Notes: generated by a model from the sequence alone, not told the origin. Shown: positions 9,001 to 52,776, counted from the stretch's first letter. The stretch is DNA of 64,000 nucleotides from a virus (IMGVR_UViG_3300012344_000017:41851-105850), one strand, 5' to 3'. Made by a program: numbers and translations.

Positions 9001-12000
9001 TATTCGATTGTATAGCTACTGGTAAACTTAAGAATGTGTACGATAAGATGAAGGAGAATAAGATTGATAACCTCCTTATGACATCTGCGGTAAAAGTTGG
9101 TCTTCAAGGTCATTCTGAGTTCGATGGTGAAACCATTAGTAAACCTTTAAATGTTTATACACAGAGACTTTCTGCGCTTCGTAGACAGCTTAATACAGAC
9201 CCTGAGGAAGGTGATGTTGTAGCAGCTGGTACACAGATGATTAAAGTTTGTTTATCTAGTTTACGTCTTGATAGAATGTATGGCGATATGACTGGAGAAT
9301 AGCTTAGAGATAAGCTTATGGGTTCTATTAATAAACTTTCTAAACTTGGTGTAGATAAGTTTAAAGATAGATTCTATTCTAATGGTATTATAGATCAGAA
9401 GAAGCTTAGCGAATATCTTATCGAACAGCTTGGTACTAGAAATGCTAATAAGAATCTTATAGATGCTCTTACTTATAATCCAGAGACAGGATCAATGAAT
9501 GCACCTATTGCATCTACAGCTGACGCTAGTTGGATGGAGTCTATGCTTATATCTGCAGCAAATAAGGATATTATTGATATTATGACTCCTGGTAGTTCAT
9601 TTATTCAGAGATCTGTATTTGCTATTGAAGGAAAGAACGGAGAAGGTTCTATACAAGGCCAAGAGATTTATAATGGTAAAAGATTATAGATGATCAACGA
9701 AGAAGGTTCTATGGACGCCGTAATATCCATTGATTACTTCCAGGATATTCTTCCAAAGAACTTATCTTACAACGAGGCTAGACAATGGCTCTTAGATCAT
9801 AATATAATCGGTGAAAATGCTACATCTAATACGATTGGTTATCGTATCCCTACACAGGCTCAGTCATCTATACATGCTTTACGTTTTGTAGATGTTGTGC
9901 CTGCTGTTAAATCTACAGTAATACTCCCAACAGAGTTTACTAAGATAACTGGTTCGGATTTTGATATAGACCACCTTTATTTGGCACGTTATAACGTCAA
10001 TAATGAAGGTAAATATGAATTTGATCCCGAAAGCGCAGAAGGTTTACAGAATAGCATTATTGAAAGTATTCTTACTGTACTTAAGGATAAAAAGTCTCTC
10101 AACATCTTATATAAGTCTATTGATAATGATACAGAGCTTGTAACAAGTATTGCAGACGAGATTCCAGAACAAGGTAACACAAAGAGTGTAGCGTATAACT
10201 TTGGCACATTACATGAGTAGGTTACTCGTAAGAATGACTACATTACAGGTAAAACCGGTATTGGCCCATTTGCGCTGAATGTAACAAACCATATTCTTAC
10301 AACATTGTATGGTGTTAAGTTTAAAGAATCTAGCTTTACAAAGGTAACAGGTATAACTGGTTTTGATTAGATTCTTGACGAAGATAACAATCAGATTTCA
10401 TCTTGGTTATCAGCATTTATTAACGCACACGTAGATATTGTGAAAGACCCATATATCTCCAAGCTTAATGTAAACGGCTTTACGTACAATATGATTAACT
10501 TACTTGCTAGAAACGGTAAGGGCAAACAAGGACTTTATTTCTTGTGTCAACCTATTATTAGAGAGATGGCTAAAGCTGATATTGACGCCAAGTCTTAGTT
10601 CACTAGAGACCCCAAGGTGTTTAAATCTGCTTTCGAGATGAGAGATAAGAGGCTAGCTGAGATATTCCCTAGTGTAACTGGTAAAACAATAGACGACGAT
10701 TATATAAAAGGCGCTACAGAGCCAAATAAATCTAAAGGTGAGCCTGCTAGACGAGCAGAAATAGTAAACTCTGTACTTAATAATATGGATATGCTTTAGA
10801 AGATAGCCAAGAATCCAGATTTGGTCTACGCTTAGACAGAAGAAGGAGAAAGAGCTAGGGTTTTCCAGGTTAACTGCTATATAGCCTGGAAATGTCTTGA
10901 GAAGTATTCTAATGCATTAAATAGTTTGGTGTAGTATACTAAGATTGATACTCGTAAACAAGGTAAGAATTTCCTTGAAATGCAAGCTTACCTTAGGGGG
11001 TACGAGAATCTTACAAACCCAGAAACTGATTAGCTGTTTGATATGGATTCTATTAACAACCTTATATACGGTACATGGATTGAGTAGAAGACAAGAGATG
11101 CTATTCAAGAGCCTATGAGAGTTATGTCTGGGCAATCATTCCAGGGAACTCCGTAGTTTATAGAACAACTTGTCAACCTGTCTGATGATTTTAAGTATAA
11201 AACAAATGATAGAGAGTCTGATTTGCTTAGAAACGCTAAGACCATGAAGAAGATATCGCAGGCTGCCAGTAGTTAGATTAAGGCTAGATACGCTCTTAGA
11301 TTAGCCAAATCGTTAGGTATTGATGTTAAGGGTTTATTTGACGGTAACGCTACGATATTTGATAGGCTTAATTCTATACAGGCTTGCATTCAGCGCGATG
11401 CATATGGTCTTGGTAGATTAAAGGATAACTACTTATTATCTCATCTAGCTCCATACATTTAGGATTAGGATGTATTTGTAGCAGGTAAGATTACAAATAA
11501 GCCTAAGTTTATTAGCGTCATAAATAGCATGGATGAGAGTAAGATGTCTTCTGATATGTTTATAGAGTCTTGGGAAGAACTTCTTAACGACCCGCAAGCT
11601 AATGTAAGAAGATTTGCAAACGATCTCATATTATATGCAATACTTACATCTGGTGATACAAAGGGCTTTAATAAGATTGCAAAGTATATTCCTATGAGCT
11701 GGCTCGAGGCTAGGCATGATGAGAGTATAGTACCTTTCTCTGATTACATTAGAGAGCAACTTGAGGCTCCAGAAATTGATCATGATCTTATAGCTCAAAA
11801 TAACTATATGGATAGCGATTTAATTAGTAGGGCTACATTTAAAGATTACTATTACGCTTTTAATGCTCAGTATTCTCCTGCCGTAATAATTAGTAAGGAT
11901 TCTCATGAACATGATGCTTTGTATGTATCAGTTCGAAACGATGGAACAACATACAGTGATCCAACATCTTATACTTTGTATAAAAAAGTTGGAGAAGCTA

Positions 12001-13013
12001 TGGTTAATGGATCCAAACGTGCAGTATATGCGTTATTACCTAAGAGAGGTTGGTCTGACAGAGACGGTCTTAATATATATGAGGCTGGAGATATAAATCT
12101 CAACGTAAACGGTATTCCGATGAGTCAAGAGATTATTGGGAACCAGCTTAATAAACTTATGATTTATCTTAGCCAAATGAAGCCAAACATTACTGATTAG
12201 TAGCGCAACAATTGGATGACATGGTTCAACCAAATGTACTATAACGCTAATTCAGAATATCCTACAATATCTAAAGCTGTAGAACAATAGAATACATAGA
12301 GTACTGTTGGTGAAGTAAAACTTGATGGTAAAGGTCCTTCTGGACAGACTATCTATATAAGCAAACAGCTATTCTATAAAGATCAGCCTCAGCAACACAC
12401 TAATGTACAATATGTGTTTACAGATAACGCTCAGGCTTATGCTAAAGCACAGGGATTATCTATGCAAGGATTCGCTAATTAGAACCCAGTATTAAATGTA
12501 AGCTCTGGCGCTACTGGCACAAACCAAGCTTGTATTAGAACTGGTAGTGATGGTAAGGTTACTCCTAATGCATTTGGTCTTGTAGTAAAGGTTAATCAAC
12601 AAGATGCTTCTGGTAAATGGCTTGCTAAAGACGGCTGTTTCTAGGATAATCAAGGCGATATAATGGCGTTTAAGTCGTGGGTAAATCATATGCTGTCTAG
12701 AATAGATAAGAATAAACCAATAGTATTCCCTGCCTCTATAGCTCTTGGTAAAGCAGCCCTTCCTAGAGAAGCAGCAGAATGGCTTAGTGTACAATTGCTG
12801 TCTAGATTTAACATTAAGTCTACAGTTCAAGAAAACACTAGAGCTGGTTATACTGGTTATGGATTATCTATAGAAGGTGTTGTAGACGATGATTACGCTA
12901 ATACGTTAATTAAAGAAGAACAATAGAAGCAAGCTCTATCACAACTTAGGTTAACTAAAGAAGATATTGAGGAAGCTGAAAGAATTAGAAATCATTGCAA
13001 AGGAGGTAAATAA
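1..13013 (+). CDS. Giant virion-packaged RNA polymerase protein (5'-partial, >4300 aa, TAG=Gln) with degenerate PD-(D/E)xK, zincin (HExxH) and two-barrel RNAP domains
   Basis: Nineteen listed ORF fragments from 15 to 12926 share one frame; the ends I checked are TAG, and the frame closes at TAA 13011-13013. Catalytic GSDFDIDH at 9951-9974, preceded by RIPTQ; ADGASYI near 8725; HEGFH at 5361-5375; ADIILVD...IDVR near 2478-2530. DFDID is the known crAss-type vRNAP catalytic loop. Confidence 0.93.
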
Positions 13014-16000
13014 TGAAAGAAATATGCCCTAATTTACATAATAAACAAGTAGCCAAAGAGTTTGGTGAGCTAAAAGATTTGTTTGGAGAAGAGACTGCTC
13101 ATTTACTCTGGAGCAGAAATAATGGTTATAGTATAGATAAGGCGCCAAATGGCGCCGACTCTATATTATTTGGGGAACTTTTGCATGTAGCTAATGGTGA
13201 TAGAACCCAGGCTCTTATATTGAAAGCAAAAACGTATTCAAACGAATTTTTTGATTGGTTTGGAGACTGGACATCTGACGATAAAACAAATGTATCTAAG
13301 GTTGTTGATAACAATGGAGAACCATAGGTAACTTATCATACAGTTGCCGGAATATATGATCCGTCTTTTAAAAAGTTCAACACGTATATAGAAGGAAGGC
13401 GAACTGCTATATATCATACTGATAGCTACGCAATGTCTGCCAGTTATAATAGTGTGTCATAGGAAATAGAAAGAGGAAACCGTCTTGGGCATTATTATCA
13501 AGACGATCATTATAGATATACAAAAATTAACTATCTTAATATAAAAAATCCAAAAGTATTAGACGCTGAAGGAAGAGATTGGAGATACGTACAGAAGTAC
13601 GGAGATACATATCTATCAACAAGAAACGTTGAGGAAAAATATCTTCTAAAAAAAGACAAGAAAACAATAAACAGAGCTTAGAATTTATTAAAACTAATAC
13701 AATCGAATGTTTTAACATACGATAAAGTTAACAAAGAAATAAAACACGGTAAATCTGTATTTGGCCTTTCGTTTATTAGAGACAATGATATAGGGATATT
13801 CTACTAGCTCGCTAACAAAACTGGACGTTTTGTTCCATTTAAAAAACACAAAGAAGAATTCAAATAGCAACTTACTAAATTTTTAAATGAAGTTATTTCT
13901 GAATAGCAATAGATTGAAGATTCGTAGTTTGATGGAATTATTATTAACAATGTAATAGATTATGGAAGTGGTTCCGAAAACGACTCTCATACAGTGTACG
14001 AATGCATATATAACTCTTAGGTGAAGTCTGCATTCAATAATGGATAGTTTTCTAATCCAGATGATATGTATGCGTCTCCTCAAGGTGACATTAATCTTGG
14101 AGCAGCAAAAAGATTGTCAAATATTCAACAAAAAGGTGATATATCTATATTATAGTAGTATCTAAAATCTCATAGAGACGGAATGTCTAGTACGGCGCTA
14201 AAGCTTGTTATGGCAGCTGTAAACAGATACTTTAACGATAATAATACTGGTATAACATATGAGATTGTGAGTAACCTTCCTGGAGGAGAGGCTGCTCATT
14301 ACGATAGATCAAATAAAGTTATTCGTATAAATAAGAATGCTAATTTTAGAAACGAAAGTAAATCTACTACTCCGGAAGTATAGACAATTATACACGAAAT
14401 GCTTCATGCTGTCACAGAGCACGCGATTAGCAACGATTCTAGGATAAGAAAGTCTTTTACAGACATATTAAATAAAACCAAGAAAGCTCTTGGCGAAGAA
14501 GCTAAAGATTATGGCTTATCTGATGTATATGAATTTATTGCAGAACTTAGTAATGCGCAATTTGTAGAAAAGCTCAAATCCATACAATATACTCGCAAAT
14601 AGACGTTGTTTGACAAAATTAAACAAGCAATAAAGAAGATATATTCTCAAATATTCACAAGTTATAAAGATTTTATAGGTTCTAATAATGTGTACGAAGC
14701 TGCTGTTAATGATTTGTTTGCCGTAATGTCTCACAACGAGCAAAAGGAAGATAATATCGTAGACGAAGATATTAATGATAGACTGGCTTCTATACAGGCG
14801 TCTGAAGACAAAGTTAATTAGATACATCATAGAATAACAGAACTTTTTCAAGGGTTATATAAAGACTATAAGAAACAACTTAATAAGGGCGCTAATAGAC
14901 AGCGTAGAGAGGATCAAATATGGTCTACTATACAAGAACTTAAGTCCCAAGAAAAGAAAGAGTCTTCAAGAATAGCTATACAGTCTGCTTTAAAGACTAT
15001 TGGTGTATTCGCAAGAGATCCAATTAATAATACTATTTTACAAGCTCGCAGAGATACTATTTTAGGCTTCTTATAGGAATGTCAGAAGAATAATTTTGAT
15101 AGCCTTACAGCTGAACAAATACACGATATGAAGTCTAATATTATAGATTTCTATAACGATCTTGTTAAGACGTTATCCGACAATCAAATTGATCTCGATG
15201 CTAGAGATTAGGCTGATGTTGATACGCTTAATGCTACAGTAAGATAGATTAATCAATTATGGAAAGATGCTGCACAGATTGTAGCAGATAAGATAGTTGA
15301 TGAGAATGTAGATAAATACATTAATGAGTCTGAAGAAGAGAAAAACAAGATAAAAGCTGTAGCTAAAGATTGGCTTCATAAGAATGATATGTATGGAGAC
15401 GAATCCAAGCTTACGTTATTCTTTAATTATTCTAGACAAAATAGCCCTATTATACGCCAGGCGTTCTAGATGATACAAGACGCAGACTAGTAGACCAGAA
15501 AAGATTCCCTTCCTGTTATGCAATAGATAGCTAAGGCTTTTAATAAAGCTAATTCTATTATAGATGATCTAACTCCAGGAAACTGGCAGACCATGTTGAT
15601 GGAAAGATATACAGACGGTCCTAAGAAAGGAGAGTTTACTGGCTTATTTAGATCCGCTGTTAATAGAGGTTAGTTCAAACAAGACTAGGAAAACTTTAAA
15701 GAAAAACTTAATAAAGAATGGCAAGATAAGTATGGTTATTTCTACTACAAGGATCCTATTACAGGAGAAACTTTAAGAAGTGACACAGAGTCATCTGTAG
15801 AAGAAGAACAATGGATCGGAGATAAAGAACCAAGTTATGTAACATATCAAAGAAGATATGAGGAGTGGCTCTGTGACCACGCTCACAGAAGATATTCTAA
15901 GACATACTTTATGGAGCGCCTTAGTAAACCTTATGATCCAAAGACTAGAACTGGTCACGGTTTGTCTCCAAGAACACTCTCTAGACAACAATATATACAA

Positions 16001-19000
16001 GATCAACTTAATTATCTATTGCAGAAGTGCTCTGATAAATAGACCGGTTTGTCTTATCCGGAAAAGCTTAATTCTCATGACTATCAAAAGTTATAGATGT
16101 GGAAGGATGCTTTACAAGATTTAGGAAATCCATTTGATCAAGAAGGTAATCTTAAGGATGGCGACGCATTACAAACAGCCCTTGAAATACAATCTTGGAA
16201 CAACTGGCTAGCCAAACAAACTGATTATTCTACAGATTTTGAAGAGTTTGATAAAGAATATAAGAACATTGTAGACTAGATTAAAGCTGGAGAAAAGACT
16301 ACGTAGGATCTATACAAGTTTATTGATGCAAATTCTGAGTACGGCATAAACCCAGAATATCTCGAATACATTTTTGGTAAGAATAATTCTGCTAAAGAAA
16401 GTTTATAGAGAATGTTTTAGAACTCAATGAAGAAACTTATTAAGACAAAGAATGGCTTCGTTAAGGATTTTAGTAATGTAATTTTCTCTGAGCAGCCTGA
16501 TGGTACAGTAAAGATTCCAGATATGTGGTTCTACTCAAGATCTGCAGATATTAAGAACAACGAAGAGAACAATGCTACTGGTGTAGATCCAGAAGAATTT
16601 AGATCCGCCTTTGATATTATAGAAGTTCCTTATACAGATCCATCAGGAATGCAATTAGCTAAAGACGGAGTAACAAAATTTGACCCGCGTAATAATCCAA
16701 ATGGTATAGAACCTATGTCATGGTTTGAGTATATACTTAAACAATACACTGATGCAGCTCTTGATGGCAGAATGCCTAGATATATATCATTAGACGGTAA
16801 AGTTGGTATTGATTTCGCTACACTTGGTAGTAATCGTTAGGCTGTAGAGAAATGGATAGCAGAGAATATTCTTATGTACACTAAGACATGGGAAGGCAAA
16901 GATGGCACAATGAAAGCCAAGCAAGTACCTCTTACAATATTCTCTCAAATAGTTCCAAAGAGGGCTACATTTGGTGACAATTAGCCTACATCTAGATACA
17001 TACCTAAAGGTCGTTTTACAACAAAGAAAGGATCTTCTACATCTTCTATATACGACGATAAGTTCTATGATGGTGATAGAAGCGGTTTACAGCCAGACTT
17101 TGATAAGTATGGAGATAAAGACTTTGTTAAGTTTATATAGAATGGCGACGCTAGAGCATAGTATTACAATCTCCTTGTACAAACTATGGAGTAGCAATGG
17201 GATAAACTAGGGTTAGATCCATCGTATAACAGATTTAAACTTCCTCAAATAGAAGGGACTTCTAATATTAAGACATCTAGAGCATTAGGTAGTCCTGGAA
17301 AATTTGTTAAAAACTTACTTTAGAATGCTACTGGTGCTACATCTGACGATACAAGTATGAGAGATGAAGGAGATTTTGTACAGCGCAATGGTAAATGGGT
17401 TCTTAAAACCGCGCCAACACGCTTTATAAACGAAATGGAAGATCCTTCAATGATTAGTTCGGACTTAGCTTACACTGTAGGCATGTTTGTAAATATGACT
17501 AACAACTTTGTAAATAAATCTAAAGTGCAAGCCAAACTTGAAACGCTAGGTTATAATTTGTCTGACGAGACAAGGGATTCTGAACACCAAGGAACTGGCA
17601 CAAGGTAGTAGGAGCGTTACGCAAAGATGTTAAAACAGTTATTTTACGAGTCTAGGGAAACAAATGACGATCCTGGAGAAAAGCCTTCAAAGAAAGCTAT
17701 TGCAGCAGCAAAACTTGTAAATAAAACTAGGGGTATTTCTGCTTATCTTATGCTTGCAGCCAATATACCATCAATGCTTGTAGGCGTATGGGATTCTTTT
17801 ACACAGATGCCAGCATAGGCTGCTAGAAATGACCAATTTGGTTTTAGAGACCTTATGAAAGCATATCTTTATACAGGATTTGATCTTATGAAAGTTTTAG
17901 CCAACATTGGCAATCCTATAGCTAACTGTAAAGCTGTAGCCATGATGCAGAAAGATGGTCTTGTTAGAACAAACGACGAAACGTTTAAAGATGCTTACCG
18001 CAATAGAATCACGAAGGCTTTAAAACAATCTGCTACAGGCGGTTATACAATGGGCGATTATATGATGAATATGCTTGCTTAGAGAGCCACGTATAATGCA
18101 AAGAAGTACTATCCAGGTAATTCTATTGTTAAAGAAGGGTTTTATACAAAGGCAGAATTCAATAGACTAATGGTTAACAGTGGTCTTACATAGAAAGAGA
18201 TTAATAGAGACTGGAAAGATAATCACGGAGAATCTATGTGGGATGCATACTATTTTGATCATGGTATAGCTAAAATAAAACCATCGTATGCTAATGTTTA
18301 GACATAGGATAGTAAGTTGTCTGCTACTATATAGCAAACTATGGCGTTACTTAATGGTAATTCACCAAAGAATGATCAATCGGCTGTTAGTAACAATGTC
18401 TTGCATAAGTTCTTTTTCTTAATGCGTAACTTCTTTATACGTAGAGCAGAGCACTGGTTTGCTGGATATACATCAGATAATGTCGTAAGAGAATTAGAAT
18501 AGGTTAAAGAAAATGTATAGAGAGGCGGTACTACAACTATTAAAGCTAGAACTGTTCGCAAGCCTTTAACAAACGAGTAGAAAGCGCAGAGATGTATGTA
18601 CGACTATAGTACAGGAGAAGCTAATCCTGCTGTACTTGTAAACCTTATGAGAGGCGCTCACACTTAGCTTAGATGGTTTAATTAGTAGATGTTTAATCGT
18701 TAGGCTATACTTGTAGATCCTGTTAAATTTAATAAGAACGAAGTTAAGTCTCTTAGAGAATTTTTAACATGGGGTCTTTGTCTTGCGTTACTTTCTGTAG
18801 GATGGATGGCATTCCATAGATATGTACAGAGTGATACAAAAGATCTTAAACCTAAAACTTACGAAGAGTCTTTGCCTACATTAAAAAACTTTGTAGATTA
18901 GAAGGTTTACCTTAGACTTATAGATTAGTGCATGTTTAGAACTATCGACTCACAATTTTAGTTATACAACGTCTATTAGTTTGTAGATATGGTTAAGTCT

Positions 19001-19381
19001 GCCACAACTGTAACATCTGCTGTAGAGAAATTTACAGAAGTACCTACAGCTATTGCTGATGCTGTTGGATTAACAGGAAATAATCCGACTGACATTATTT
19101 CGTCTGACTCGAAGTACAAATACTTCCCACGTTGGTAGAGATCGTTAATGACAGCCTCTGGGGTCCTCAACAATATACAAACATGGGGATCCAGTAGAGG
19201 TAATGACAAAGTAGGTAGATGGTACTTTGATAACACCGTAACTGGTACTGTATTCAAGATGGGAGGATATACATGGAAAGGTGACGAAGAAAAGAAACGT
19301 AGTTCAGGTAATATGCTTGAAATGGCTCCAATGTAGCCAATGCCAAAAATGGCGCCTATGGCACCAATGCCTGGATTTTAA
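13013..19381 (+). CDS. Large polyvalent virion (ejected) protein, 2122 aa, TAG=Gln; N-terminal ART-PolyVal-like domain and zincin metallopeptidase
   Basis: TAATG overlap with the upstream gene; fragments 13013-19336 share a frame; TAA at 19379-19381. Motifs FDWFGDW-SKVVDNNGEP-YH...YLNIKNP...FDGIII...QVKSAFNNGQFS and IHEMLH...EFIAE (14393-14407). Confidence 0.88.
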
Positions 19382-30373: not shown

Positions 30374-31036
30374 TTATGCTGCTATTCGCATTTGTTTATC
30401 TGCATTTGGCAGCAGTATTCGTCCAGTCTTTCTGCGATGGTCTCGCAAGTTTGTACAAACAAGATTTCCACGTTTTGCTTTTACCTTATTTGTTTCCTTG
30501 CGAGCCATTTTAATGACTTTACTGTGTTCTGGAAGATTGTTTACTCCTCCATACTTTACAGTATCACCATTGTCTTTTATCTGAGCAATTTCTTGCTCTT
30601 GAAACTTCTCCTCGGATGATTTAAATCGTCCAATGAGATGTAGTTTGTCATACTTAGCGACGATCAGGTCTCTAATATGTTCCTCTGCCGTATTCTTTTG
30701 CTCTTCCCATACTGGGAATTGCTGCGCGTAGAAGAGGTCATCTTTCTGTACAGGACACGGGTGTTTATGTTCCCACTTTTGCAACTTGTGTTGCACATAT
30801 CCTTCCATAAGCTCAATCCGGTTAAGCTTCTTACTCTTTGTGCGAGATTCAATTGTGTTTGAATCACGTTTGAGCAATAAGAACCAAGGTCTCTTACGCT
30901 TAAGGCCATGTATATTATGTTCTTTACAGAACTTGTGAGTTGTACCATGATGCTTATCAAATTCATCAAGCCATGCCCATTTGATTTTACGGTACTCGCT
31001 AACATAGTCTTCCAAATATTGATTATCTGTTTTCAT
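30374..31036 (-). CDS. Hypothetical basic protein
   Basis: 220-aa ORF with AT-rich leader. Confidence 0.75.
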   Translation of the reverse strand: MKTDNQYLEDYVSEYRKIKWAWLDEFDKHHGTTHKFCKEHNIHGLKRKRPWFLLLKRDSNTIESRTKSKKLNRIELMEGYVQHKLQKWEHKHPCPVQKDDLFYAQQFPVWEEQKNTAEEHIRDLIVAKYDKLHLIGRFKSSEEKFQEQEIAQIKDNGDTVKYGGVNNLPEHSKVIKMARKETNKVKAKRGNLVCTNLRDHRRKTGRILLPNADKQMRIAA

Positions 31037-31053
31037 AACGTATATTTTTTAAA

Positions 31054-32040
31054 TTAAGCTGCTTGTTTAACTGACTTTGGTTTAATTTCCTTTACTTGCG
31101 TAGGCTTCTTGTTTACAGGTTTGGCTGCATGCTTAAGAGCTCTACGAGCCTTTCGCCCAGCAGCTTTACTACCATGGCGGAATTCATGCGTAGCTTCTTC
31201 TTCTTTCTTCTTAGCGGTCTGCTTTGCACGACGAAGATTATAGAAGTTTACATTACGAACCTTAGAGCATTCTACGCTATGGGGAGATCCACCTTTCTTA
31301 GGCTTCTTTGTTTTAATTGACTCAATGGGCACGCCAGCAGCATCAAATGGATTTACTCCATCTGTACGATACTGATAAAACGTAGCGTTACCTATGAGCT
31401 CACGAAGCTTCTCTATTGCACTCTTAGGAACACCTTTAAAGAATGCTGTAGAGTTTGTAATACTTGCAGCCTTAATACCACAATCCTTTACGATCTTCTC
31501 AATCTCCTTACGTTTCTTGAGAGCTGCGTCACAGACTACAACGACATCATAGACTGTAGCTGAGTTCCACTGTTTCTTAGCAGCGTCTACAACCTTCTTA
31601 GTTGTAGCCTCATCAAGTTTCATTCGAGAACAACGACGTGTAATAGAAGCAATGTGACGAGCTTCTGCTGTCTTACGACGCTCCTCCTGCTTCTTCTTAC
31701 GCTCCTCTAGAGTCATTTTAACGACTGCTGGAGCCTTTGTCTTCTTGGAGTCGATCAACTTATCCATAATGCTCTTTTTACGAGCTTTACGGGTCTCTAT
31801 GCGAGCCTTAGAGGCTGCGTATTTTTTCTCCTCCTTGAGCTTCTTAGCTTCTTTCTTAGCAGCTTTAAGCTCAGCGTTCTTCTTGGCTTTCTCTTTGTCA
31901 GCCTCGCGACGCTTCTGAATGTTCTCTACTGTATTGTTAGCAGACTTAGACTCTTCCTTCTTAGCTGCCTCAGCCTTTGCTGGTGTATTATTTATCTTAG
32001 CTTGAACCTTCTTCTGGTTCTTCTTATTCTTCTTTGACAT
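31054..32040 (-). CDS. Very Lys/Ala/Arg-rich protein (putative nucleic-acid binding)
   Basis: 328 aa; histone-H1-like composition around a small globular core. Confidence 0.75.
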   Translation of the reverse strand: MSKKNKKNQKKVQAKINNTPAKAEAAKKEESKSANNTVENIQKRREADKEKAKKNAELKAAKKEAKKLKEEKKYAASKARIETRKARKKSIMDKLIDSKKTKAPAVVKMTLEERKKKQEERRKTAEARHIASITRRCSRMKLDEATTKKVVDAAKKQWNSATVYDVVVVCDAALKKRKEIEKIVKDCGIKAASITNSTAFFKGVPKSAIEKLRELIGNATFYQYRTDGVNPFDAAGVPIESIKTKKPKKGGSPHSVECSKVRNVNFYNLRRAKQTAKKKEEEATHEFRHGSKAAGRKARRALKHAAKPVNKKPTQVKEIKPKSVKQAA

Positions 32041-32161
32041 AATTTTGATAATTAAATGTGTTAATAATGTTATTTTTAAGGCAAGGGATTCCTTATTGTA
32101 GTTCGTGTAAGTCTCGATCTTACTCCTCTCGGCGACCCAAATGTCTCGAACTTATTGTAGT

Positions 32162-32710
32162 TTATATAGCCATATCCTGCTCGAACTTACTTACAATATC
32201 ACCAGTAATCTCAATAGAAGTCTCGTTATTAAACTTCTCAAGATTAGCGTCGTACTTATTTGCTAGTAGTTGATGCTCATGGATAAGCTGCGCAATCTTT
32301 GCTGATGAGAAAATCTCACGCTTAGGCATCGCCTTTAATCCCTTCTTTGCCTTAGTTGATGGATCAAGTGTCTTGATCATCTTAAGTTGAGCGATAGCCT
32401 CCTTAGCCTCACAGGCTGCAAAGATACTATAATTATTTGTCTTCTTAAAGCCCTCATAAGAGAACGTTGTAGTACCTGTATTAAGAGCCAACAAAATACC
32501 CTTAATTATAATACGCTTCTCACTAAGCTGGATAATCTGATTATACAAGCTCTTGAGATCTAAGCCAGAACCCTGTTTAGCTGCTACGGCCTTCTTTGCC
32601 ATAAGGTTCTCTGCTCGAATAATTCGCCAATACTTGTTAATAGTTGTGTCAAGATTCTTGCGAATAGTAATAATATTTGCTGAGTTCAATTTAATTGATT
32701 TCTTATTCAT
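32162..32710 (-). CDS. Hypothetical helical protein
   Basis: 182-aa ORF. Confidence 0.75.
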   Translation of the reverse strand: MNKKSIKLNSANIITIRKNLDTTINKYWRIIRAENLMAKKAVAAKQGSGLDLKSLYNQIIQLSEKRIIIKGILLALNTGTTTFSYEGFKKTNNYSIFAACEAKEAIAQLKMIKTLDPSTKAKKGLKAMPKREIFSSAKIAQLIHEHQLLANKYDANLEKFNNETSIEITGDIVSKFEQDMAI

Positions 32711-32804
32711 ATAGTTTGATTAAAATTAAACAATTACTTGAATCCAGCCATTTGCCTAGTTCTACAGTTATAAGTTAATATAAAAGTAGATAAAGTGATC
32801 CCTT

Positions 32805-33171
32805 GGTAGTCAAACCCCTCGGGGTTCGACCACCTATTCCCCTCGGGGAATGTTTTAGAGATGCACTTTAAAAATGATTCTTTATGATTTTTAATACACT
32901 GTTGTATGTTCTATACAAGTCTACCCATTCATGAAATGCATAATTGTCGGCGCACCGATTCATATACCATTCCCTCGGGAATGTTTCTGTTTATGGATAA
33001 ACTCGTTTAGCTCCTACAATACCATACTCAATCTCAATAAGAGGATCACCTACACAGTCCTTAAAAGAAAGGACTTTCTTTTTACTTCCGTTGATGTTGA
33101 TCACAAGATTCTCTGGATAATTACGTTCTGCGTTAAGCCTTGGCCCTTGCACCCGGGACCCCTCGGGGTCC
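32805..33171. repeat. Four hairpins sharing a CTCG (CGAG on - strand) tetraloop
   Basis: 32805-32834, 32836-32851, 32968-32983 and 33156-33171; different stems, same loop. Confidence 0.65.
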
Positions 33172-33578
33172 GCTCCTACGCCATCAGTAATTTTAGATTT
33201 CTGAGCAACCTTGGTAGCAACATCATACAGACGTCCTACGACCCAGTCATAAGATTTCTCCTTGACTGCTTTCATCACGATTTCTCGTGATAATCCTTCG
33301 ATAATAGCGGTTTGGTTTACGCCAGTCGAAAGATTCACTAGTGCTTCCCATACCTTGAGAGCAAAGTCTACAAATGATACGGTTCGCTGACAACCAATAA
33401 GTTTGTTCCACCATTGAACTTTGGTTTCGCCAAGAATGACGTCACCATTGTCCATAATAGTGTACATTTTATACTTATCAATGTGATCGAGTTTCTCGAA
33501 CACTGTTGCCTTAATCTGAGGTTCTAAGAGCAACATACCTACCAGCTTCTTGCTCTTTTCAGACAAGATAGCTTCCAT
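32991..33578 (-). CDS. Hypothetical protein
   Basis: 195-aa ORF. Confidence 0.75.
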   Translation of the reverse strand: MEAILSEKSKKLVGMLLLEPQIKATVFEKLDHIDKYKMYTIMDNGDVILGETKVQWWNKLIGCQRTVSFVDFALKVWEALVNLSTGVNQTAIIEGLSREIVMKAVKEKSYDWVVGRLYDVATKVAQKSKITDGVGADPEGSRVQGPRLNAERNYPENLVININGSKKKVLSFKDCVGDPLIEIEYGIVGAKRVYP

Positions 33579-33582
33579 AGGT

Positions 33583-34188
33583 CTATGCTGTTACATTAAC
33601 CTTAACGGATACCTCAGCCTGTGGCTTAGACTTCTCCTTCTCGTCGAAGTATGTAGCTACCTTGTTTTCGTTTGCGCTAATGGCAGAAACACACTGAGCT
33701 TTTGCCTTGTTACACATCTCGATAATTGCATCGAGACGGGCAATCTCTGCACGATTGAGCTGGTTCATCAACAAGCCCATCTTCTTAGGATCAGAGAAGA
33801 CCATCTTCTTCTCAGGGTTCTTCATAGCCTCACGTACAGCCTCTTCAGTTGTCTTACCGAAGCTGCTAAGTGTTGCTGCTGGAACCTCGATCTCAAGATC
33901 TGTCTCTGGATTAATCTTAAGCACAACTTCACCTGCGATATTCTCAGTCACTCGCATGTCTGTCACTGTTGTAGAGAAGACACTGAAGCGACGAGGAGAA
34001 CGATTGAGACATAAGTCTGCATCTCCACTTGCATGAATGTTAGCTATGATCTTCTCATAGTCCTGGTTGAATACACGGGTCTGAGGAGTAAATACATCCT
34101 GACCGAAAAGATTACCACCGATCTGACTCAGTGGGGTACGATTTGCTTTAACTGTTGTTTCCACGATGTTTACATTAACGTTTTCCAT
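33583..34188 (-). CDS. Hypothetical protein (TAG stop)
   Basis: 201-aa ORF ending TAG, 4 nt before the next ATG. Confidence 0.78.
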   Translation of the reverse strand: MENVNVNIVETTVKANRTPLSQIGGNLFGQDVFTPQTRVFNQDYEKIIANIHASGDADLCLNRSPRRFSVFSTTVTDMRVTENIAGEVVLKINPETDLEIEVPAATLSSFGKTTEEAVREAMKNPEKKMVFSDPKKMGLLMNQLNRAEIARLDAIIEMCNKAKAQCVSAISANENKVATYFDEKEKSKPQAEVSVKVNVTA

Positions 34189-36336
34189 ATTAAATCATAT
34201 CCTTTTTGATATCGTTATTGATTAACTAACGATATGATTATTAACTATGACGTATTCTTTGGCCACGTCTTTGCCGTTGTTATTGATTAAGCAACGCTGA
34301 TACGTAGATACTCGATGCTTGGTATTGTTTTCACAAAGACAGTTCTACTATTGTAGACGCTTTAATACAGACTTAGTTACACTCTTCCTATCCCAACAAT
34401 TGGAGGATAGGCTTGTAACGGGAACTACATACGTATGATGTAGTTAGCATTTACTGGATTCATCCAGGCCCATCGTCTAAAGCTTTGAATGCTGTCTTGA
34501 CATAATCAAATGTCATATGTATGTTTGTTTTGCAGTACTTCTGCTTATAGATTTTTCTAACTATAATATCCCTAACCTCGTTGGCAGAATTTCCTTTCGG
34601 ACTAGTGTTCGTAGAAATTAGAGAATATAAACCAACAAAAAGAGATGTAGTATTTTCGGTCGTATTTCCCTTACTATACAACGAATATAAACTACAGGTT
34701 GTCGATTAAACGCAGATTTCCTCAGCTAATAAGTTTTAAAAGCGCCTAACTTATCGAAATGACTCCTCTCTGCGGTACTCGGCTTTTGACATGTACCCAG
34801 TGGTTGGTTATCGGAATGTCTCAGGATCAAACCCTTCTCAGACTTTACGGCTTTTTACATCTTTGCTGATGTTTGTAATTTTATTGTACCGGTATTACTA
34901 CCTCCTATTTATAGTGCACGAATATTAGGAATTCAACCCATACATTTCATCTTGTCACCCACTTATAAACGTAATATATATGTATAGAGACAGTATACAC
35001 ATATAATATACACAGTCGTTTTTACAACATTGAATATAAGCTGCCCATCAATTTCTTGTATTGCTTTGAACCTTTGTGTTTACATATACTGTTGCGCAGT
35101 ATATTTTAGCATGGTTTAGCATATCGGTTGGCACTCGAACTTTCCAGGAGGGGCCTTCAATACAACAGAAGCGTAGTTCCCATCTGGAGGACATCAATTT
35201 TTATTAAACATGTTTGTTTTGGATACTACTAAATTTCCATAATTTATATCTCTATGTATATACTATATGCATACATAATATGCCAGTTTACTACCCTGTA
35301 GAGACTATGTAATATTATATAATAACATACAAATAAACTATTAGTTTAGTTTCTCTCTGGATCAAGTGGAGGTCAAATGGCTCTGGATGAGCATATCTCG
35401 AATCGACTTAAACCTAATTCTTTTACCATTTCTTATTCTAGGATAGTTCTCCATCAATTTTCTTTGGCTATAACGAAGCCATCGATCATAACCTCGTAAG
35501 TTATTTAGTTCTTACGGGATACATACTTTTCATCATCGCTTACCATGATTATTATATGTTGAAATAGACTTTCACCGCGGTCTTCATCCGCGTACGATAC
35601 TTCTAATAAAGCTTCGATTAAGGGGTTGCCCTACCCTTGCGCTTGTTTTACTTTTATATACCGCATAAATAAGCAAAGCCTGGCGGTCACAATCAGACAC
35701 TTCTACCCCATCCCTGGCACCCCTTCAACGGAGTTGTACTGAATCGAACAGTAAGGTTTTGGTATAGTCAGCAAACTCATTTAGTTTACTCTGTGTGGTA
35801 TTATCCCCACAGTATAGATGCATTACTTCGGCCCTTGTATTACCCTTGGACAGGTAAAAGCACTACCTACAGCTATTGATACTACTATTCGCTTTGGAGT
35901 CCTCGGTTCTTCCAGTATCATGCACCATACCATGTATGCAATTCTGTTCACCTACTGGGGACGCAAATAGTTGTTTCTCGTGTAACGTTCGTGTATATTT
36001 AGTATCATCACATACAATTCCGATACGGTTCATTATGCCCTTCTTGGGACTTATGCGTTTTTGAACTTTATAACTTCACCCTGCTTATCTCCAATACGGT
36101 TCTCATAAGTCCAGTTATATATTCCTAGGAGTTGATACAACGCTTCTCCTACTTGTAGCAAACTTTTCAATGCTTGATACATTTCATCCTACCTTTTGAG
36201 TAATCTTGCTCTGCAAGACAGAGTTAACATATTCTCGGATCAAGTTCTTTTCGTACACAGGCTAATGAGACCTGCTATATGTACTTAGCTGAGTTAAGTA
36301 TGGTAGGTTCTTATGTTTACTACCATACCTCAGAGG
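34189..36336 (-). ncRNA. Candidate large structured non-coding RNA region (about 2.1 kb)
   Basis: No credible ORF; many short hairpins; T-loop TACTG-TTCGATT-CAGTA (35737-35753); recurrent GAACCG, AAATTGATG and GTATC words. Strand inferred from flanking genes. Confidence 0.5.
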
Positions 36337-36693
36337 TTATTCACTTACTTTGTGCACATTGTAAGCGTAATCTACACTGTCTCCCTCAACAGGTGTAGCA
36401 ATGTAAAGAAGTGGTAAAGACGAGATACCATTCTTCTCTACAATTTTAGTTTTAATTACAGTCTTTACAGTCTGCGATTGATGGTTACAAGGTACAGGTA
36501 CTGTGTCATGTACTGTATCAGGATTAGCTCTATTCATATTATTGTTGAGTATTGAACTCAACGGTAGTTGCGGAACGGTAGATGCTGCTACCGTTTGCAG
36601 ATTCGTTGGAGGCATATAACCTGCCATGTTAGCTATATTGGAACCAACAATGACAAACGCTATCGCCAACAATGATGTAACTAAATTTTTCAT
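36337..36693 (-). CDS. Secreted or membrane-anchored hypothetical protein
   Basis: MKNLVTSLLAIAFVIVG signal-like N-terminus. Confidence 0.7.
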   Translation of the reverse strand: MKNLVTSLLAIAFVIVGSNIANMAGYMPPTNLQTVAASTVPQLPLSSILNNNMNRANPDTVHDTVPVPCNHQSQTVKTVIKTKIVEKNGISSLPLLYIATPVEGDSVDYAYNVHKVSE

Positions 36694-36796
36694 ACTTTGA
36701 TAGTTATTACTTAGTTTTGTTCACTTTGCCACTTGATATCAAGTACTTTTTTTACTCGACCAACTAGTCGTGAACCAGCTTTCTTAATTGGTCGAA

Positions 36797-38332
36797 TTAT
36801 TTTTTTTCGACCTTAGACTTAGCCTTGCCCTTAGCAGCTTTCTTGGCATCCTCCTTAGCCTTCTTCTCGGCAGCCTTCTTAGCCTCCTCAGCAGCGGCAT
36901 CGTTCTCAGCCTTGATCTCCTCATCAGTCTTGAACTCAAGATCAATGATGTTGCTCTTAGCAACTCCGGCGATAGGGTCTGAAGGATTACGGAAAAGATT
37001 AGAGATTACACCAGCATACTGAGTACAGTTAGCAAGCATAGAATCAATCTTAACCTTAGCCATCATTTCAGGTGTTACGTCGTTATAGAATGCGCGTTTG
37101 ATAGAGATGACAGTCTTCTTAGCGAAATTATCACCAGCCTTGAACTTTTCGCTCAAGTTAGAAACAAAGTCAGAAGGAGCATTGGAAATGCAAGCGAGTA
37201 CACGCTCAGCATACTTAATGTTCTTCTCACCAGTCTCAATGTGAGGCTTAACGCGATCTTTCTCAGGAAGCTTATTTTCCTCATCAATGAGCATCTTACC
37301 CTTAGCGTATACCTCATCAGCAGCGATTGACACGATGCACTTAATTACATCAGCAATCTCATCTTCAGAATACTTGCACTTACCGGTCTTCTTATCTGTA
37401 CTATGTGCATAAAGCTCACAGAATGCAGATACTGGAGATCCGGACGCAGCGGTAACGTTGAATAAGTGAGCGCCAAGACCGTACACAAGTGTGCCGGTAC
37501 GACCTGTAAGGCTAACAATCTTGCGAAAGGTTTCAGCCTTAGTCATATTCTTAATAGACTCAAGTTCGGCTTTTGCGTTATCCAAAGCTTGTTCGGCCTT
37601 AGCCTTGTATTCCTTATCACTAGTATTCTTCAGGGTTTCTTCTGCAGCATCAATCTTACGATTAGCTGAGACCTGAGCCCATGCACTATAGAAAGAAATA
37701 CACTTACTAACGCTATCCATCAGCTTAGAATCATTGTTAAGAGCTAAGAAGCTAGAAAGAGCTGTCTTCAATTCCTCCTCGTCCTTGATCTTTGTAGGAT
37801 CATAGATTTTGCCAGCTGTTTTATTCAACGTCTCAGCATCCTTTGTGAGACTATCCTTCGTCTCTTCGGATACCTCAACTGCGGTTGCAGGTACAGACAC
37901 GGCCTCGTCACCATTTTCAGCAGGAGATGCTGTAAGAAGCTTAGTTTCGTCAAGAGTAATACCAAGCTCTGTACAAGCTTCCTTGAATTCTGGAAGTGCA
38001 GCCTTACGCAGTGTAATAGCGAAGTCGCTATTACCAGAATTAATCTCATTAGCGTAGACTGTAACCATACCGAGGAAGTTAATATGATTCATTTTGTCAA
38101 CACTCTCAGGAGAGAGTCCTGTATGTTCAGCTGCGTTAGGATCAAGGAAACAGCGCTCGTGAACCATCTTCAAGAGATCTACTTGATGATTACGATCCAT
38201 TGAGCTTTTACCCAATGTTGTGCTCATCATTGCATCTAGAGCAGACTGGTTTGCATTTACCTGAACCTGCATATTCTCTTGATTATTTACCTGTGCAGGC
38301 TTAACCTGCGCATTTTTATTCTTTTTAGCCAT
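36797..38332 (-). CDS. Hypothetical protein, 511 aa, with basic tail
   Basis: Long ORF with strongly biased codons. Confidence 0.82.
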   Translation of the reverse strand: MAKKNKNAQVKPAQVNNQENMQVQVNANQSALDAMMSTTLGKSSMDRNHQVDLLKMVHERCFLDPNAAEHTGLSPESVDKMNHINFLGMVTVYANEINSGNSDFAITLRKAALPEFKEACTELGITLDETKLLTASPAENGDEAVSVPATAVEVSEETKDSLTKDAETLNKTAGKIYDPTKIKDEEELKTALSSFLALNNDSKLMDSVSKCISFYSAWAQVSANRKIDAAEETLKNTSDKEYKAKAEQALDNAKAELESIKNMTKAETFRKIVSLTGRTGTLVYGLGAHLFNVTAASGSPVSAFCELYAHSTDKKTGKCKYSEDEIADVIKCIVSIAADEVYAKGKMLIDEENKLPEKDRVKPHIETGEKNIKYAERVLACISNAPSDFVSNLSEKFKAGDNFAKKTVISIKRAFYNDVTPEMMAKVKIDSMLANCTQYAGVISNLFRNPSDPIAGVAKSNIIDLEFKTDEEIKAENDAAAEEAKKAAEKKAKEDAKKAAKGKAKSKVEKK

Positions 38333-38410
38333 TTTGATAATGTTTTAAATTGTTTGTTACTTGTGGATTACCCACGTTAATAAATACTTTCTTGGACAAC
38401 TAAAATAAGT

Positions 38411-38809
38411 TCAACTTGTGTCGAACATAAAATTCGTTTTTAATCCTTCAAGTTGTGGTGGCTGCGTGAGCACAGATATATGCTCATCTTCACCAAAGTT
38501 AATACTAGCGGTAGTATCTACAGCTACTGAATCCTTACCTGCTGGTTTTGTCTCAACAGATGTACCAGCGCCCTCTGAGGGTTCCAAAGCCTGAAATGAG
38601 CACGTTGGTGCCAGCATGGGAGCAGGAGTAGAATCAATAACGCTAGATTCACTTTTATGGTCAGCAAAGGCAGAGCTGACCATTTTGCAACCAGTAAAAC
38701 CTCCAAGAAGGCTTACAAGAAGGATCCAGAATAGCTTATTGCTCTTATTGTATCGGGCAAAACCCAATGCGCAAGCAATACATCCGAAGATCATTAAAAG
38801 TGAAGTCAT
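38411..38809 (-). CDS. Membrane protein with two N-terminal hydrophobic segments
   Basis: 132-aa ORF. Confidence 0.7.
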   Translation of the reverse strand: MTSLLMIFGCIACALGFARYNKSNKLFWILLVSLLGGFTGCKMVSSAFADHKSESSVIDSTPAPMLAPTCSFQALEPSEGAGTSVETKPAGKDSVAVDTTASINFGEDEHISVLTQPPQLEGLKTNFMFDTS

Positions 38810-38811
38810 TG

Positions 38812-39369
38812 TTAAACGTTTAAATTATTTTTAATTTTCCTACGAGTGCGACTTAACGCAGCTTTTATAGTGCCAGTAGGAGTTTTTAGCACTTTACTAA
38901 TCTCATCAACTGTTAGATCTTCTACATAAAACAAATTAAAGATTTTCTGTGTCTTCTTTGGGAGCTTTTTAAACTCCTTTAAAAGAGATTCGTACTCAAG
39001 AAGATTGACAAGATCTCCTTCTTCTGAAGAATTAGTTAATTCCTCTGGTAGTCGGCCAGTGTTATCTCCTAATTCCATAGACCTTTCTTTTATTTTGCGT
39101 AGATAATCTATAGCTGTTCGATTAGCTATAATTCTCAGCCATCCGCCAAAAGACGAATAATCTGTGAATGTCGAGAGTTTCTGATGAACCTTTAGAAATA
39201 CTACATTAGTAAGATCTTTGGCTTCATCCATGTCGTTCACGTAACTAAAGAGCACGTTGTCAACGAACTCTTTGTAACGGTTAAACAGTTTGTTAAACGC
39301 AAGTTCATTTCCCTTTTGCGCTTCTTTTATGGTCTCAATCTCAGATTGGGTGATACGTTGATACTCCAT
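38812..39369 (-). CDS. ECF-type sigma-70 factor
   Basis: Region 2 AKDLTNVVFLKV..FGGWLRIIANRTAIDYLRK; region 4 LTVDEISKVLKTPTGTIKAALSRTR. Confidence 0.92.
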   Translation of the reverse strand: MEYQRITQSEIETIKEAQKGNELAFNKLFNRYKEFVDNVLFSYVNDMDEAKDLTNVVFLKVHQKLSTFTDYSSFGGWLRIIANRTAIDYLRKIKERSMELGDNTGRLPEELTNSSEEGDLVNLLEYESLLKEFKKLPKKTQKIFNLFYVEDLTVDEISKVLKTPTGTIKAALSRTRRKIKNNLNV

Positions 39370-39412
39370 AATTGGAGCGTAGGGGAGATTCCTCTCGCCC
39401 TACGCCTTGTCT

Positions 39413-39817
39413 CTAGAATGGCAAATCGTATGCGAACTTTTGCTGAAACACACTTTGTACATTATGTACAAAGTTATATTGGAGTTGGATTTTTAAATTA
39501 TCCCCGCCTGTTTTGAGGTCTGTTTTATTTAAGACACCCGTTGCTATACGTAGGCGAACTCCAACTGTTCTCATTTCAAGAGGTTCGAGGACGATTCTGT
39601 TCATAATCCATTTTCCGATTTCTCTTAACTTTGGATTTAAACATACTTCATCTAAACACTTGTCATCTAGGTAATCGCCATGACAAAAGATGTGAGGTTC
39701 GTTCCAGATTTCCAAATCGGAATTCTTTAACTTGTTTATAACCTCCTCAATTGTATCGGCGGAATCGTGACAGGATAATTTTAACCTGTTTCTTAGTATT
39801 AAAGGGAAATACTCCAT
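39413..39817 (-). CDS. Hypothetical protein ending DLPF (TAG stop)
   Basis: 134-aa ORF followed by a GC-rich hairpin at 39377-39405. Confidence 0.72.
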   Translation of the reverse strand: MEYFPLILRNRLKLSCHDSADTIEEVINKLKNSDLEIWNEPHIFCHGDYLDDKCLDEVCLNPKLREIGKWIMNRIVLEPLEMRTVGVRLRIATGVLNKTDLKTGGDNLKIQLQYNFVHNVQSVFQQKFAYDLPF

Positions 39818-40328: not shown

Positions 40329-40397
40329 TGGAGAAGAGCAAGGAATCGAACCTTGCGAATCTAGCAAAGCTAGTATATACCAGATCTTCTCTCTCCA
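40329..40397 (-). ncRNA. tRNA-like element without a functional anticodon loop, directly 3' of the tmRNA coding piece
   Basis: GAGAAGA...CTAGC-TTT-GCTAG..GCAAGG-TTCGATT-CCTTGC-TCTTCTC-CA. Confidence 0.6.
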
Positions 40398-40690
40398 CTT
40401 AGGTAGGAAACACCTAGACTATACTTACGCTACGCAAGTATAGTCTACAATGTTGTTTACATTGTCGTTTGTATTTAGTATAGTGCTTAATGTATTTACT
40501 TCCTCTGTCTGTCAAAAGCCAAAACACGCCCGTATAGGTAGTTTTACAACATGCCCAGGTTGCCCAAACGGAGTCTAAACGTAGAAGAGATACCTCTAAT
40601 AGACTTATCGTAGGGGGAAGAAGAACGTGGACGTGAGGGGAATCGAACCCCTGTCCAAACAGATTAACTCATACACACTTTACTTTCTTT
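40398..40690 (-). ncRNA. ssrA: Circularly permuted (two-piece) tmRNA: acceptor piece about 40690-40628, intervening segment 40627-40532, coding piece 40531 to about 40400
   Basis: T-arm AGGGG-TTCGATT-CCCCT plus CACGTCC-A precedes the 5' strand GGGCGTG (G3-U70 wobble, A73); D-loop TTTTGGCTTTTGAC; helix CAGACAGA/TCTGTTTG; tag frame DNVNNIVDYTCVA-TAA with the stop in a hairpin. Outer boundaries approximate. Confidence 0.85.
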
Positions 40691-40742
40691 GTAAATGTTC
40701 TAATGATCAGTTAGAACATTTGATTTAAGCCATATAGGAGTC

Positions 40743-52608: not shown

Positions 52609-52679
52609 CGCGAGATGATGAAAAGGTATCATACGAGGCTCATAACCTCGATTTGCTAGTTCGACTCTAGCTCTCGCAA
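52609..52679 (+). tRNA. tRNA-Met (CAT), initiator-like
   Basis: Full cloverleaf; C1:A72 mismatch; CGAGG-CTCATAA-CCTCG. Confidence 0.85.
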
Positions 52680-52685
52680 CTATAT

Positions 52686-52757
52686 TGCCCTATCGTATAT
52701 TGACTATTACCTCTGTCTCTAAAACAGAAGAAGTGGGTTTGATTCCTACTAGGGCGA
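52686..52757 (+). tRNA. Amber suppressor tRNA (anticodon CTA), presumed Gln
   Basis: TGCCCTA/TAGGGCG acceptor with a weak 1-72 pair; TCTGT-CTCTAAA-ACAGA; anticodon at 52719-52721. Confidence 0.9.
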
Positions 52758-52776
52758 CTAATAAATAATAATAAAT

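Follow-up and report, generated by a model that had tools for sequence, protein, structure and literature searches.

A 2.1-kb non-coding region with conserved, covarying base-paired structure in crAss-like phages of the subfamily Oafivirinae

The locus and its genes

The window, a stretch of 64,000 nucleotides (IMGVR_UViG_3300012344_000017:41851-105850) analysed at full length, derives from a crAss-like phage of the Suoliviridae, subfamily Oafivirinae, whose closest annotated relatives are Burzaovirus cr124_1 and cr7_1 (81-83% identity across 34189-36336). Crassvirales are the most abundant human gut viruses, and few of their early and middle functions are known. In the window, the gene block from 19.4 to 50.3 kb is located on the - strand and uses the standard code, and a region free of ORFs sits within this block. 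The late genes (3-19381, +), which include ORFs of 4336 and 2122 codons, form open frames only if TAG codes for a residue; a suppressor tRNA with a CUA anticodon is located at 52686-52758 (+). The region and the genes around it are as follows.

34189-36336, - strand: the whole ORF-free structured region (no ORF, no codon periodicity; synteny, conservation and covariation)
36337-36693, - strand: upstream gene, 118 aa
33583-34188, - strand: downstream gene, 201 aa, with its ATG at 34188
32991-33578, - strand: 195-aa gene, the second gene downstream of the region

The same operon contains a permuted (two-piece) tmRNA at 40334-40717 (-), 4 kb upstream of the region, which is identified by both Rfam (RF04321, 56 bits) and ARAGORN; the genome of cr115_1 carries an annotated tmRNA at the matching place. 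Two contigs of approximately 101 kb that carry a conserved block of the region (JAJWOH010000001.1 and JAJXAL010000002.1) are binned in Segatella copri MAGs, giving a hint, and no more, of Segatella/Prevotella as the host.

The proteins neighbouring the region show no recognisable family or solved fold. For the 201-aa protein, no PHROG family, Pfam family or Atlas match was found; its AlphaFold model (pLDDT 75) comprises a beta sheet and a C-terminal helix of 50 residues. The predicted fold has no match in the PDB and matches uncharacterised proteins of cr115_1, cr118_1, cr50_1, cr10_1, cr53_1 and cr56_1 at 15-21% identity. The protein appears to be Suoliviridae-wide and always located 3' of the gap.

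Coding capacity

The longest ORF in 34189-36336 measures 73 aa with table 11 and 102 aa if TAG is taken as Q, the frames of both strands contain 25 to 65 stop codons each, and the longest stop-free run in the standard code is 81 codons. Furthermore, neither a single nor a double stop reassignment opens a frame between these positions, so that the ORF-free character claimed in an earlier sequence-only reading holds under table 11, under TAG=Q and under any stop reassignment. In an alignment of 20 close relatives, the variable columns are distributed over the codon phases as 267, 239 and 267, a 3-periodicity of substitutions is absent in every 300-nt window (smallest p 0.31), and only 11% of the indels have a length divisible by three. 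In the same genomes, the coding DNA next to the region shows periodicity at p ~1e-18. A conserved coding signal, which that reading had named as evidence against an RNA, is thus missing (p at least 0.31 throughout), and a protein-coding gene under a variant code was rejected, as stop reassignment yields no open frame and codon periodicity is lacking. The region 34189-36336 is non-coding.

Conservation and spread

A profile of the flanking 201-aa protein retrieved 61 IMG/VR loci, of which 59 have enough upstream DNA. All 59 possess a syntenic ORF-free gap of 2103-2320 nt, while the identity of the flanking protein falls to 30% across the loci with the gap, and region and gene always co-occur. 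Across six clades, 538 of the 2148 columns are at least 90% conserved; they form blocks of 10-40 nt alternating with variable hairpin-sized segments, which are often replaced wholesale. Such conservation indicates that the region is under strong selection. Its nucleotide identity to Burzaovirus is 80-82%, compared with 74% for the next 2.15 kb of genes. The region is not the most conserved element nearby, since the protein of an ECF-type sigma factor (38812-39369, -) is 94% identical to that of Burzaovirus; the 201-aa protein, encoded 5 kb from the sigma-factor gene, is only 53% identical, and these two values point to a strongly mosaic divergence along the operon.

The same gap, mostly unannotated, is present in seven GenBank phages of five further genera (Burzaovirus, Cacepaovirus, Chuhaivirus, Bohxovirus and Buhlduvirus), and a lemur virus carries a full-length copy (nhmmer E 3e-135). 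The wider search used one degenerate pattern of 41 nt, taken from a single conserved block, and matched 72 contigs of viruses and at least 119 from metagenomes, as well as 4 contigs in a species-genome set, among them the two binned with Segatella copri. Altogether, the region is known from six or more genera and from human, macaque, pig and lemur samples. One close relative (L006), whose flanking protein is 100% identical, differs from the window by wholesale replacement at 36126-36060, 35736-35700 and 35189-35140; the replaced segments are hairpin-sized, one with a 31-nt insertion, and the intervening sequence is nearly identical. This pattern looks like the swapping of modules by recombination.

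Outside the subfamily, cr115_1 (Suoliviridae, Uncouvirinae; locus L263, 10262-12466) shows the same gene order around a gap of 2205 nt that lacks annotated genes as well as sense ORFs of at least 75 aa. Conservation of this gap extends over its full length in cr125_1 and cr114_1 (79%) and is limited to short blocks in cr6_1, cr1_1 and cr55_1. A comparison of the gap with the RNA of the window gave nothing significant, either by nhmmer or by two covariance models, also with filters off. Another giant RNA, specific to that subfamily, may occupy the slot in these phages.

Evidence for base pairing

For a covariation scan blind to structure, 63 non-redundant sequences were cut at invariant anchors and each piece was realigned; across all column pairs, runs of four consecutive pairs were counted, with each pair at least 88% standard and with changes on both sides. 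Parallel runs, which are unable to form helices, served as an internal control. At a score of at least 4, 37 antiparallel stacks stand against 3 parallel ones, and at a score of at least 6, 14 against 1. The same scan over an equal length of flanking coding DNA (2.15 kb) gives 5 antiparallel and 0 parallel stacks. The covariation whose lack the sequence-only reading had said would count against it is therefore present (37 versus 3 stacks). Approximately 20 local helices are supported along the region, and as they span 36275 to 34195, the whole region is involved. For the structures that were written out explicitly (D1, D2, helix B and hairpin A, described below), 92-94% of cells are paired, compared with 14-61% when the partners are slid, and no shuffle reaches the observed score. 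The region carries base-paired structure, including pseudoknots and a T-arm.

Local folding energies of the region do not lie below those of shuffles (mean z -0.27), so the case for structure rests on covariation. The many hairpins pointed out from sequence are accordingly upheld in one respect only: the structure is backed by covariation, but hairpin density is not above chance and local energies are no lower than those of shuffles. In the flanking coding DNA (31000-34188 and 36337-39500, -), the local folding z of the sense strand is unusually negative, with a mean of -1.32 that marks these genes as more stable than the region, and a third of the 120-nt windows fall below -2. Covarying hairpins are also located there, at 33171-33156 and 32150-32102, the former accounting for two overlapping stacks of the five in the coding control. 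RNA structure seems pervasive in the operon.

Three other approaches were set aside. A global RNAalifold fold of 20 close sequences (615 pairs, -812 kcal/mol) was dropped as evidence, because the method overfits: for the coding control it returned 66 'compensatory' pairs at -883 kcal/mol. Over all clades, APC-corrected mutual information yielded a weak signal dominated by phylogeny, and branch-wise co-substitution counts on a FastTree tree were noisy owing to the swapping of whole hairpins on short branches.

When the supported helices are extended by a strand-neutral rule, G-U occurs in 719 cells and A-C in 185, approximately two thirds of the A-C cells coming from two over-extended terminal pairs; several positions show conserved or frequent G-U. 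The excess of G-U over A-C indicates that the folding strand is the - strand of the window, which is the sense of the surrounding genes.

Structural parts of the region

From the 5' end to the 3' end of the - strand, the region comprises the following parts.

36290-36331, - strand: 5' boundary hairpin with a 14-bp stem, right after the stop codon of the upstream gene, z -3.5
36275-36287, - strand: 13-nt word after the boundary hairpin, conserved across clades
36257-36275, - strand: covarying hairpin of 6-7 bp, double-sided covariation score 8
36186-36240, - strand: 54-nt domain closed by helix 36240-36237/36189-36186, with 100% standard pairs, 3 of 4 covarying
35992-36016, - strand: covarying 7-bp hairpin from the covariation scan
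35715-35830, - strand: domain D2, supported by covariation, with four hairpins: 35814-35791 (conserved 7-nt loop), 35790-35770 (7-nt loop), the T-arm 35753-35737, and 35734-35719
35555-35725, - strand: domain D1, supported by covariation, with helices 35686-83/35664-61, 35674-69/35646-41, 35638-33/35625-20, 35592-89/35579-76 and 35583-80/35569-66
35222-35356, - strand: long A+U-rich extended hairpin, in which 35324-17/35268-61 and 35311-04/35279-72 are supported across clades (scores 9 and 7)
35140-35189, - strand: variable hairpin, swapped wholesale between near-identical genomes, in which 35171-67/35159-55 covaries
34961-35041, - strand: domain closed by 35041-36/34966-61 with inner hairpin 34999-94/34986-81, 2-3 types per pair
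34376-34513, - strand: hairpins 34513-10/34503-00, 34442-38/34430-26 and 34419-14/34381-76 (scores 6, 5 and 8)
34205-34320, - strand: 3' regulatory-looking part, with hairpins 34296-34270 and 34231-34205 bearing the same conserved loop
34194-34238, - strand: bistable 3' element, with helix B (34238-31/34201-34194) and hairpin A (34235-28/34216-09)

The 5' boundary hairpin is without a U-tract. Of the seven relatives folded, three (L043, L053 and, less markedly, L061) have strong hairpins at the same position, and most of the distant relatives possess a hairpin with the same pentaloop at this boundary. The word at 36275-36287, located just after the hairpin, is a candidate 5' signal, either a promoter or a processing site.

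Domain D2 (35830-35715) has 93.5% of its cells paired, compared with 24-52% when slid, and 14 of its pairs change on both sides; its covariation is 0.649 against 0.18 for the best slid version, and none of 500 shuffles reaches the observed score. A covariance model of this domain (R1) has one match in the window, at 108.6 bits. Within D2, the T-arm 35753-35737 (-) is formed by a 5-bp stem (35753-49/35741-37) and a conserved 7-nt loop, TTCGATT; the stem covaries, with 4-6 pair types per position, so that the tRNA-type T-loop noticed earlier at 35737-35753 is confirmed.

In domain D1 (35725-35555), 94.2% of cells are paired versus 30-44% when slid, 13 pairs change on both sides, the covariation of 0.336 compares with 0.114 for the best slid version, and again 0 of 500 shuffles reach the observed score; the covariance model (R2) finds a single copy, at 177.6 bits. 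Four loop bases of the 35592-35576 hairpin (35583-80) pair with 35569-35566 to form an H-type pseudoknot, in which 100% of the pairs are standard and 3 of 4 covary. A second pseudoknot in D1 arises where helix 35674-69/35646-41 crosses 35686-83/35664-61.

Farther towards the 3' end, support for the outer stems of the 35222-35356 hairpin is limited to the close clade, and the domain 34961-35041 is 93-100% paired in close and distant clades. In the hairpins of 34376-34513, triple compensatory change is directly observed.

Recurring words are also concentrated here. The word AAATTGATG occurs 3 times in the 64-kb window, always in the region and on the - strand (expected 1.2 for the whole window), GAACCGTAT occurs 3 times, twice in the region (expected 0.29), and GATGAAATGTAT occurs twice (expected 0.02), which bears out the repeated words of the sequence-only reading as clustered beyond chance. 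The two copies of GAACCGTAT in the region, at 36102-36094 and 36031-36023, are located near the 35992-36016 hairpin; the third exact copy is situated at 33377-33385 (-), within the 195-aa gene and on the same strand as the two RNA copies.

Two exclusive helices at the 3' end

The 3' part includes a 27-nt direct repeat with 78% identity, and at its extremity two alternative, mutually exclusive helices are found. Helix B and hairpin A compete for five bases (34235-34231), and helix B covers positions -6 to -13 relative to the ATG (34188) of the 201-aa gene. Helix B is 92% paired, compared with 27-53% when slid, with five pairs changing on both sides, and hairpin A is 93% paired, compared with 15-61% when slid, and also covaries. 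Column 34234 covaries with both of its alternative partners, which is the mark of a two-state switch that is kept up over the start of translation. In the MFE fold of the window, helix B is chosen. The conserved loop of hairpin A recurs in the sister hairpin 65 nt upstream, an arrangement that would suit a protein as trigger.

The element resembles translational operators and riboswitch expression platforms, which also have exclusive helices, both kept by compensatory change, with one of them over the bases upstream of a start codon. Unlike riboswitches, it has no ligand-binding aptamer and belongs to no riboswitch family known to Rfam; unlike the operators of short leaders, it is located at the end of a 2-kb RNA. 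What characterises a translational operator, namely two exclusive helices under selection with one covering the initiation region, is found here from sequence alone.

Relation to known RNA families

A cmscan search against Rfam 15 identified no family in the region, with the whole window searched at gathering thresholds and 33900-36700 at E<=10. The absence of a match at E<=10 excludes GOLLD, ROOL, introns, riboswitches, tRNA and tmRNA, and agrees with the earlier observation that no intron core or ribozyme consensus is visible. A group I/II intron was rejected for lack of an Rfam match and because the flanks are separate genes: a stop codon of its own ends the upstream gene, and in all clades the downstream gene keeps its start and N-terminus.

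GOLLD (RF01998) and ROOL (RF03087) are large ornate ncRNAs of phages and prophages, usually located beside tRNA genes. The region shares with them the character of a large conserved phage ncRNA with covarying helices, pseudoknots and invariant unpaired blocks, but there are significant differences. It has no match to their covariance models even at E<10, is approximately 2.5 times longer than GOLLD, and is not beside tRNA genes, the nearest tRNAs being at 52609-52758 and the tmRNA-like gene 4 kb off. In addition, neither multi-stem junctions nor long-range closing helices are supported, and the region is part of an operon, where no separate ends were detected for it. Assembly into a homo-oligomeric RNA-only cage is a further feature described for such RNAs (PMC12286853).

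The 5-bp covarying stem and T-loop consensus at 35753-35737 are shared with tRNA (RF00005); unlike tRNA, the domain has no acceptor stem, anticodon arm or cloverleaf, and neither ARAGORN nor RF00005 makes a call. A cloverleaf around the T-arm was rejected, because the closing stem appears when a single sequence is folded, whereas covariation supports a local hairpin instead.

In the literature searched, there is no description of an RNA at this locus. The nearest is a remark by Yutin et al. 2021 on stretches of crAss-like genomes without a recognisable protein and with only short ORFs of mixed polarity (PMC7886860). Those ORF-poor stretches are mainly in the Zeta group and were treated as an annotation problem, with no RNA proposed or tested; the words "non-coding" and "ncRNA" are absent from the main text of that paper (PMC7886860).

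Architecture and interpretation

Support for helices ends at a span of approximately 135 nt. In distant clades, pairing drops to 36-56% in the long-range helices that alifold suggested, and a candidate pairing over 820 nt was rejected, as it rests on few variants with mismatches and is unsupported in those clades. Furthermore, long-range complementarity between the invariant blocks does not exceed the parallel control. A compact giant fold is thus not demonstrated, although the RNA may adopt one through contacts, tertiary or loop-loop, that involve too few and too invariant pairs for these tests to pick up. An ancient threefold tandem duplication, considered for the repeat spacings of 580-690 nt, was rejected when the thirds, profile-searched against each other, gave nothing at E<10. 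Within the region, no sigma-70 promoters or intrinsic terminators stand above chance, and no terminator is found between the region and the 201-aa gene. Logan assembled contigs of relatives that come from RNA libraries (a share of ~0.11; compared against 32500-38500) cover the flanks too and carry no strand or end information. The picture suggested by these data is one of beads on a string, with short covarying stems, constant loops, and invariant single-stranded linkers that contain the recurring words.

The sequence-only reading had proposed either a single, very large ncRNA or several structured RNAs in a cluster; non-coding status, conservation, and covariation across 2.1 kb jointly support a structured RNA in either form. 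The region is probably a long untranslated structured RNA that serves as a multivalent scaffold or decoy, with a switch acting in cis at its 3' end. It would be read from the - strand within the early/middle operon and would work as RNA, and it is presumably transcribed and accumulates, and may stay intact as one piece. Some 20 or more short stem-loops and small domains, each folding independently and including the T-arm and two H-type pseudoknots, would be separated by the nearly invariant single-stranded blocks with their recurring words. These blocks, together with the constant loops, might constitute multiple docking sites for one or a few proteins of the phage or the host, a conjecture that would make the RNA a multivalent scaffold or decoy. 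In the variable stems only shape and spacing would have to be preserved, and this would account for the constancy of the total length. Meanwhile, the last 45 nt would act in cis, with two helices competing for five bases: helix B would hide an A/U-rich stretch upstream of the start codon (off), and the other helix would free it (on).

The main alternative is a cluster of separate small structured RNAs, cut from the operon transcript at, for example, the T-arm or the long hairpins. Such a cluster would agree with the local nature of all supported helices (maximum span ~135 nt), with the absence of long-range complementarity, with the tRNA-like T-arm in the middle of the region, and with the independent swapping of hairpin-sized segments between near-identical genomes. 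It is nevertheless rather unlikely, given that the total length stays within 10% and the order of the blocks is kept in all clades, that no internal promoters or terminators stand out, that ARAGORN and the Rfam tRNA model detect no cloverleaf on which RNase P or Z could act, and that partial versions were not found.

The other two readings are less probable than a cluster. A giant leader (5' untranslated or intercistronic) acting purely in cis, which controls the stability, processing or translation of the downstream genes, would account for the lack of a terminator before the 201-aa gene, for the overlap of the bistable 3' element with the initiation region of this gene, and for the constant company of RNA and gene. 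This is very unlikely, since 2 kb, 538 near-invariant columns and two pseudoknots far exceed the needs of known leaders, and conserved blocks extend up to 2 kb from the start codon. Least credible is an element acting at the level of DNA, for instance an origin of replication, a site for packaging or clustered protein-binding sites, with hairpins in single-stranded DNA. An A+T-rich inverted repeat of 135 nt in the middle of the region and the repeated words would fit such an element, and the transcription required by an RNA is itself presumed. Pseudoknots, however, are features of RNA, as is a T-arm whose loop fits the tRNA consensus; the helices are evenly spread over 2.1 kb, and cumulative GC skew changes direction near 19 kb and 50 kb of the window and not at the region. 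The strand asymmetry of wobble pairs also agrees with the direction of transcription, although it does not formally exclude a DNA hairpin, as G-T wobble is tolerated in single-stranded DNA too.

Significance

A long structured RNA at this locus would place 2% of the genome under strong selection as RNA, not protein, in every sampled member of the subfamily, across human, macaque, pig and lemur samples. As a single molecule, it would be more than twice the size of GOLLD and would add to the short list of very large RNAs of bacteria and phages. Experimental handles are provided by the putative bistable switch before a conserved gene and by the constant loops and words as candidate docking sites; more than 150 natural sequence variants are usable for structure modelling, and the hint of a Segatella copri host may guide the way to a culturable system.

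A bolder version, which is possible but more doubtful than not, is that one stable RNA of ~2.1 kb, the largest structured ncRNA known from a phage, builds a defined particle during Oafivirinae infection, either by self-assembly or together with proteins, and that counterparts too diverged to be recognised occupy the corresponding slot in other subfamilies of the Suoliviridae, for example in cr115_1. If this is true, possession of a giant RNA at this site would characterise the whole family, one of the most abundant groups of human gut viruses.
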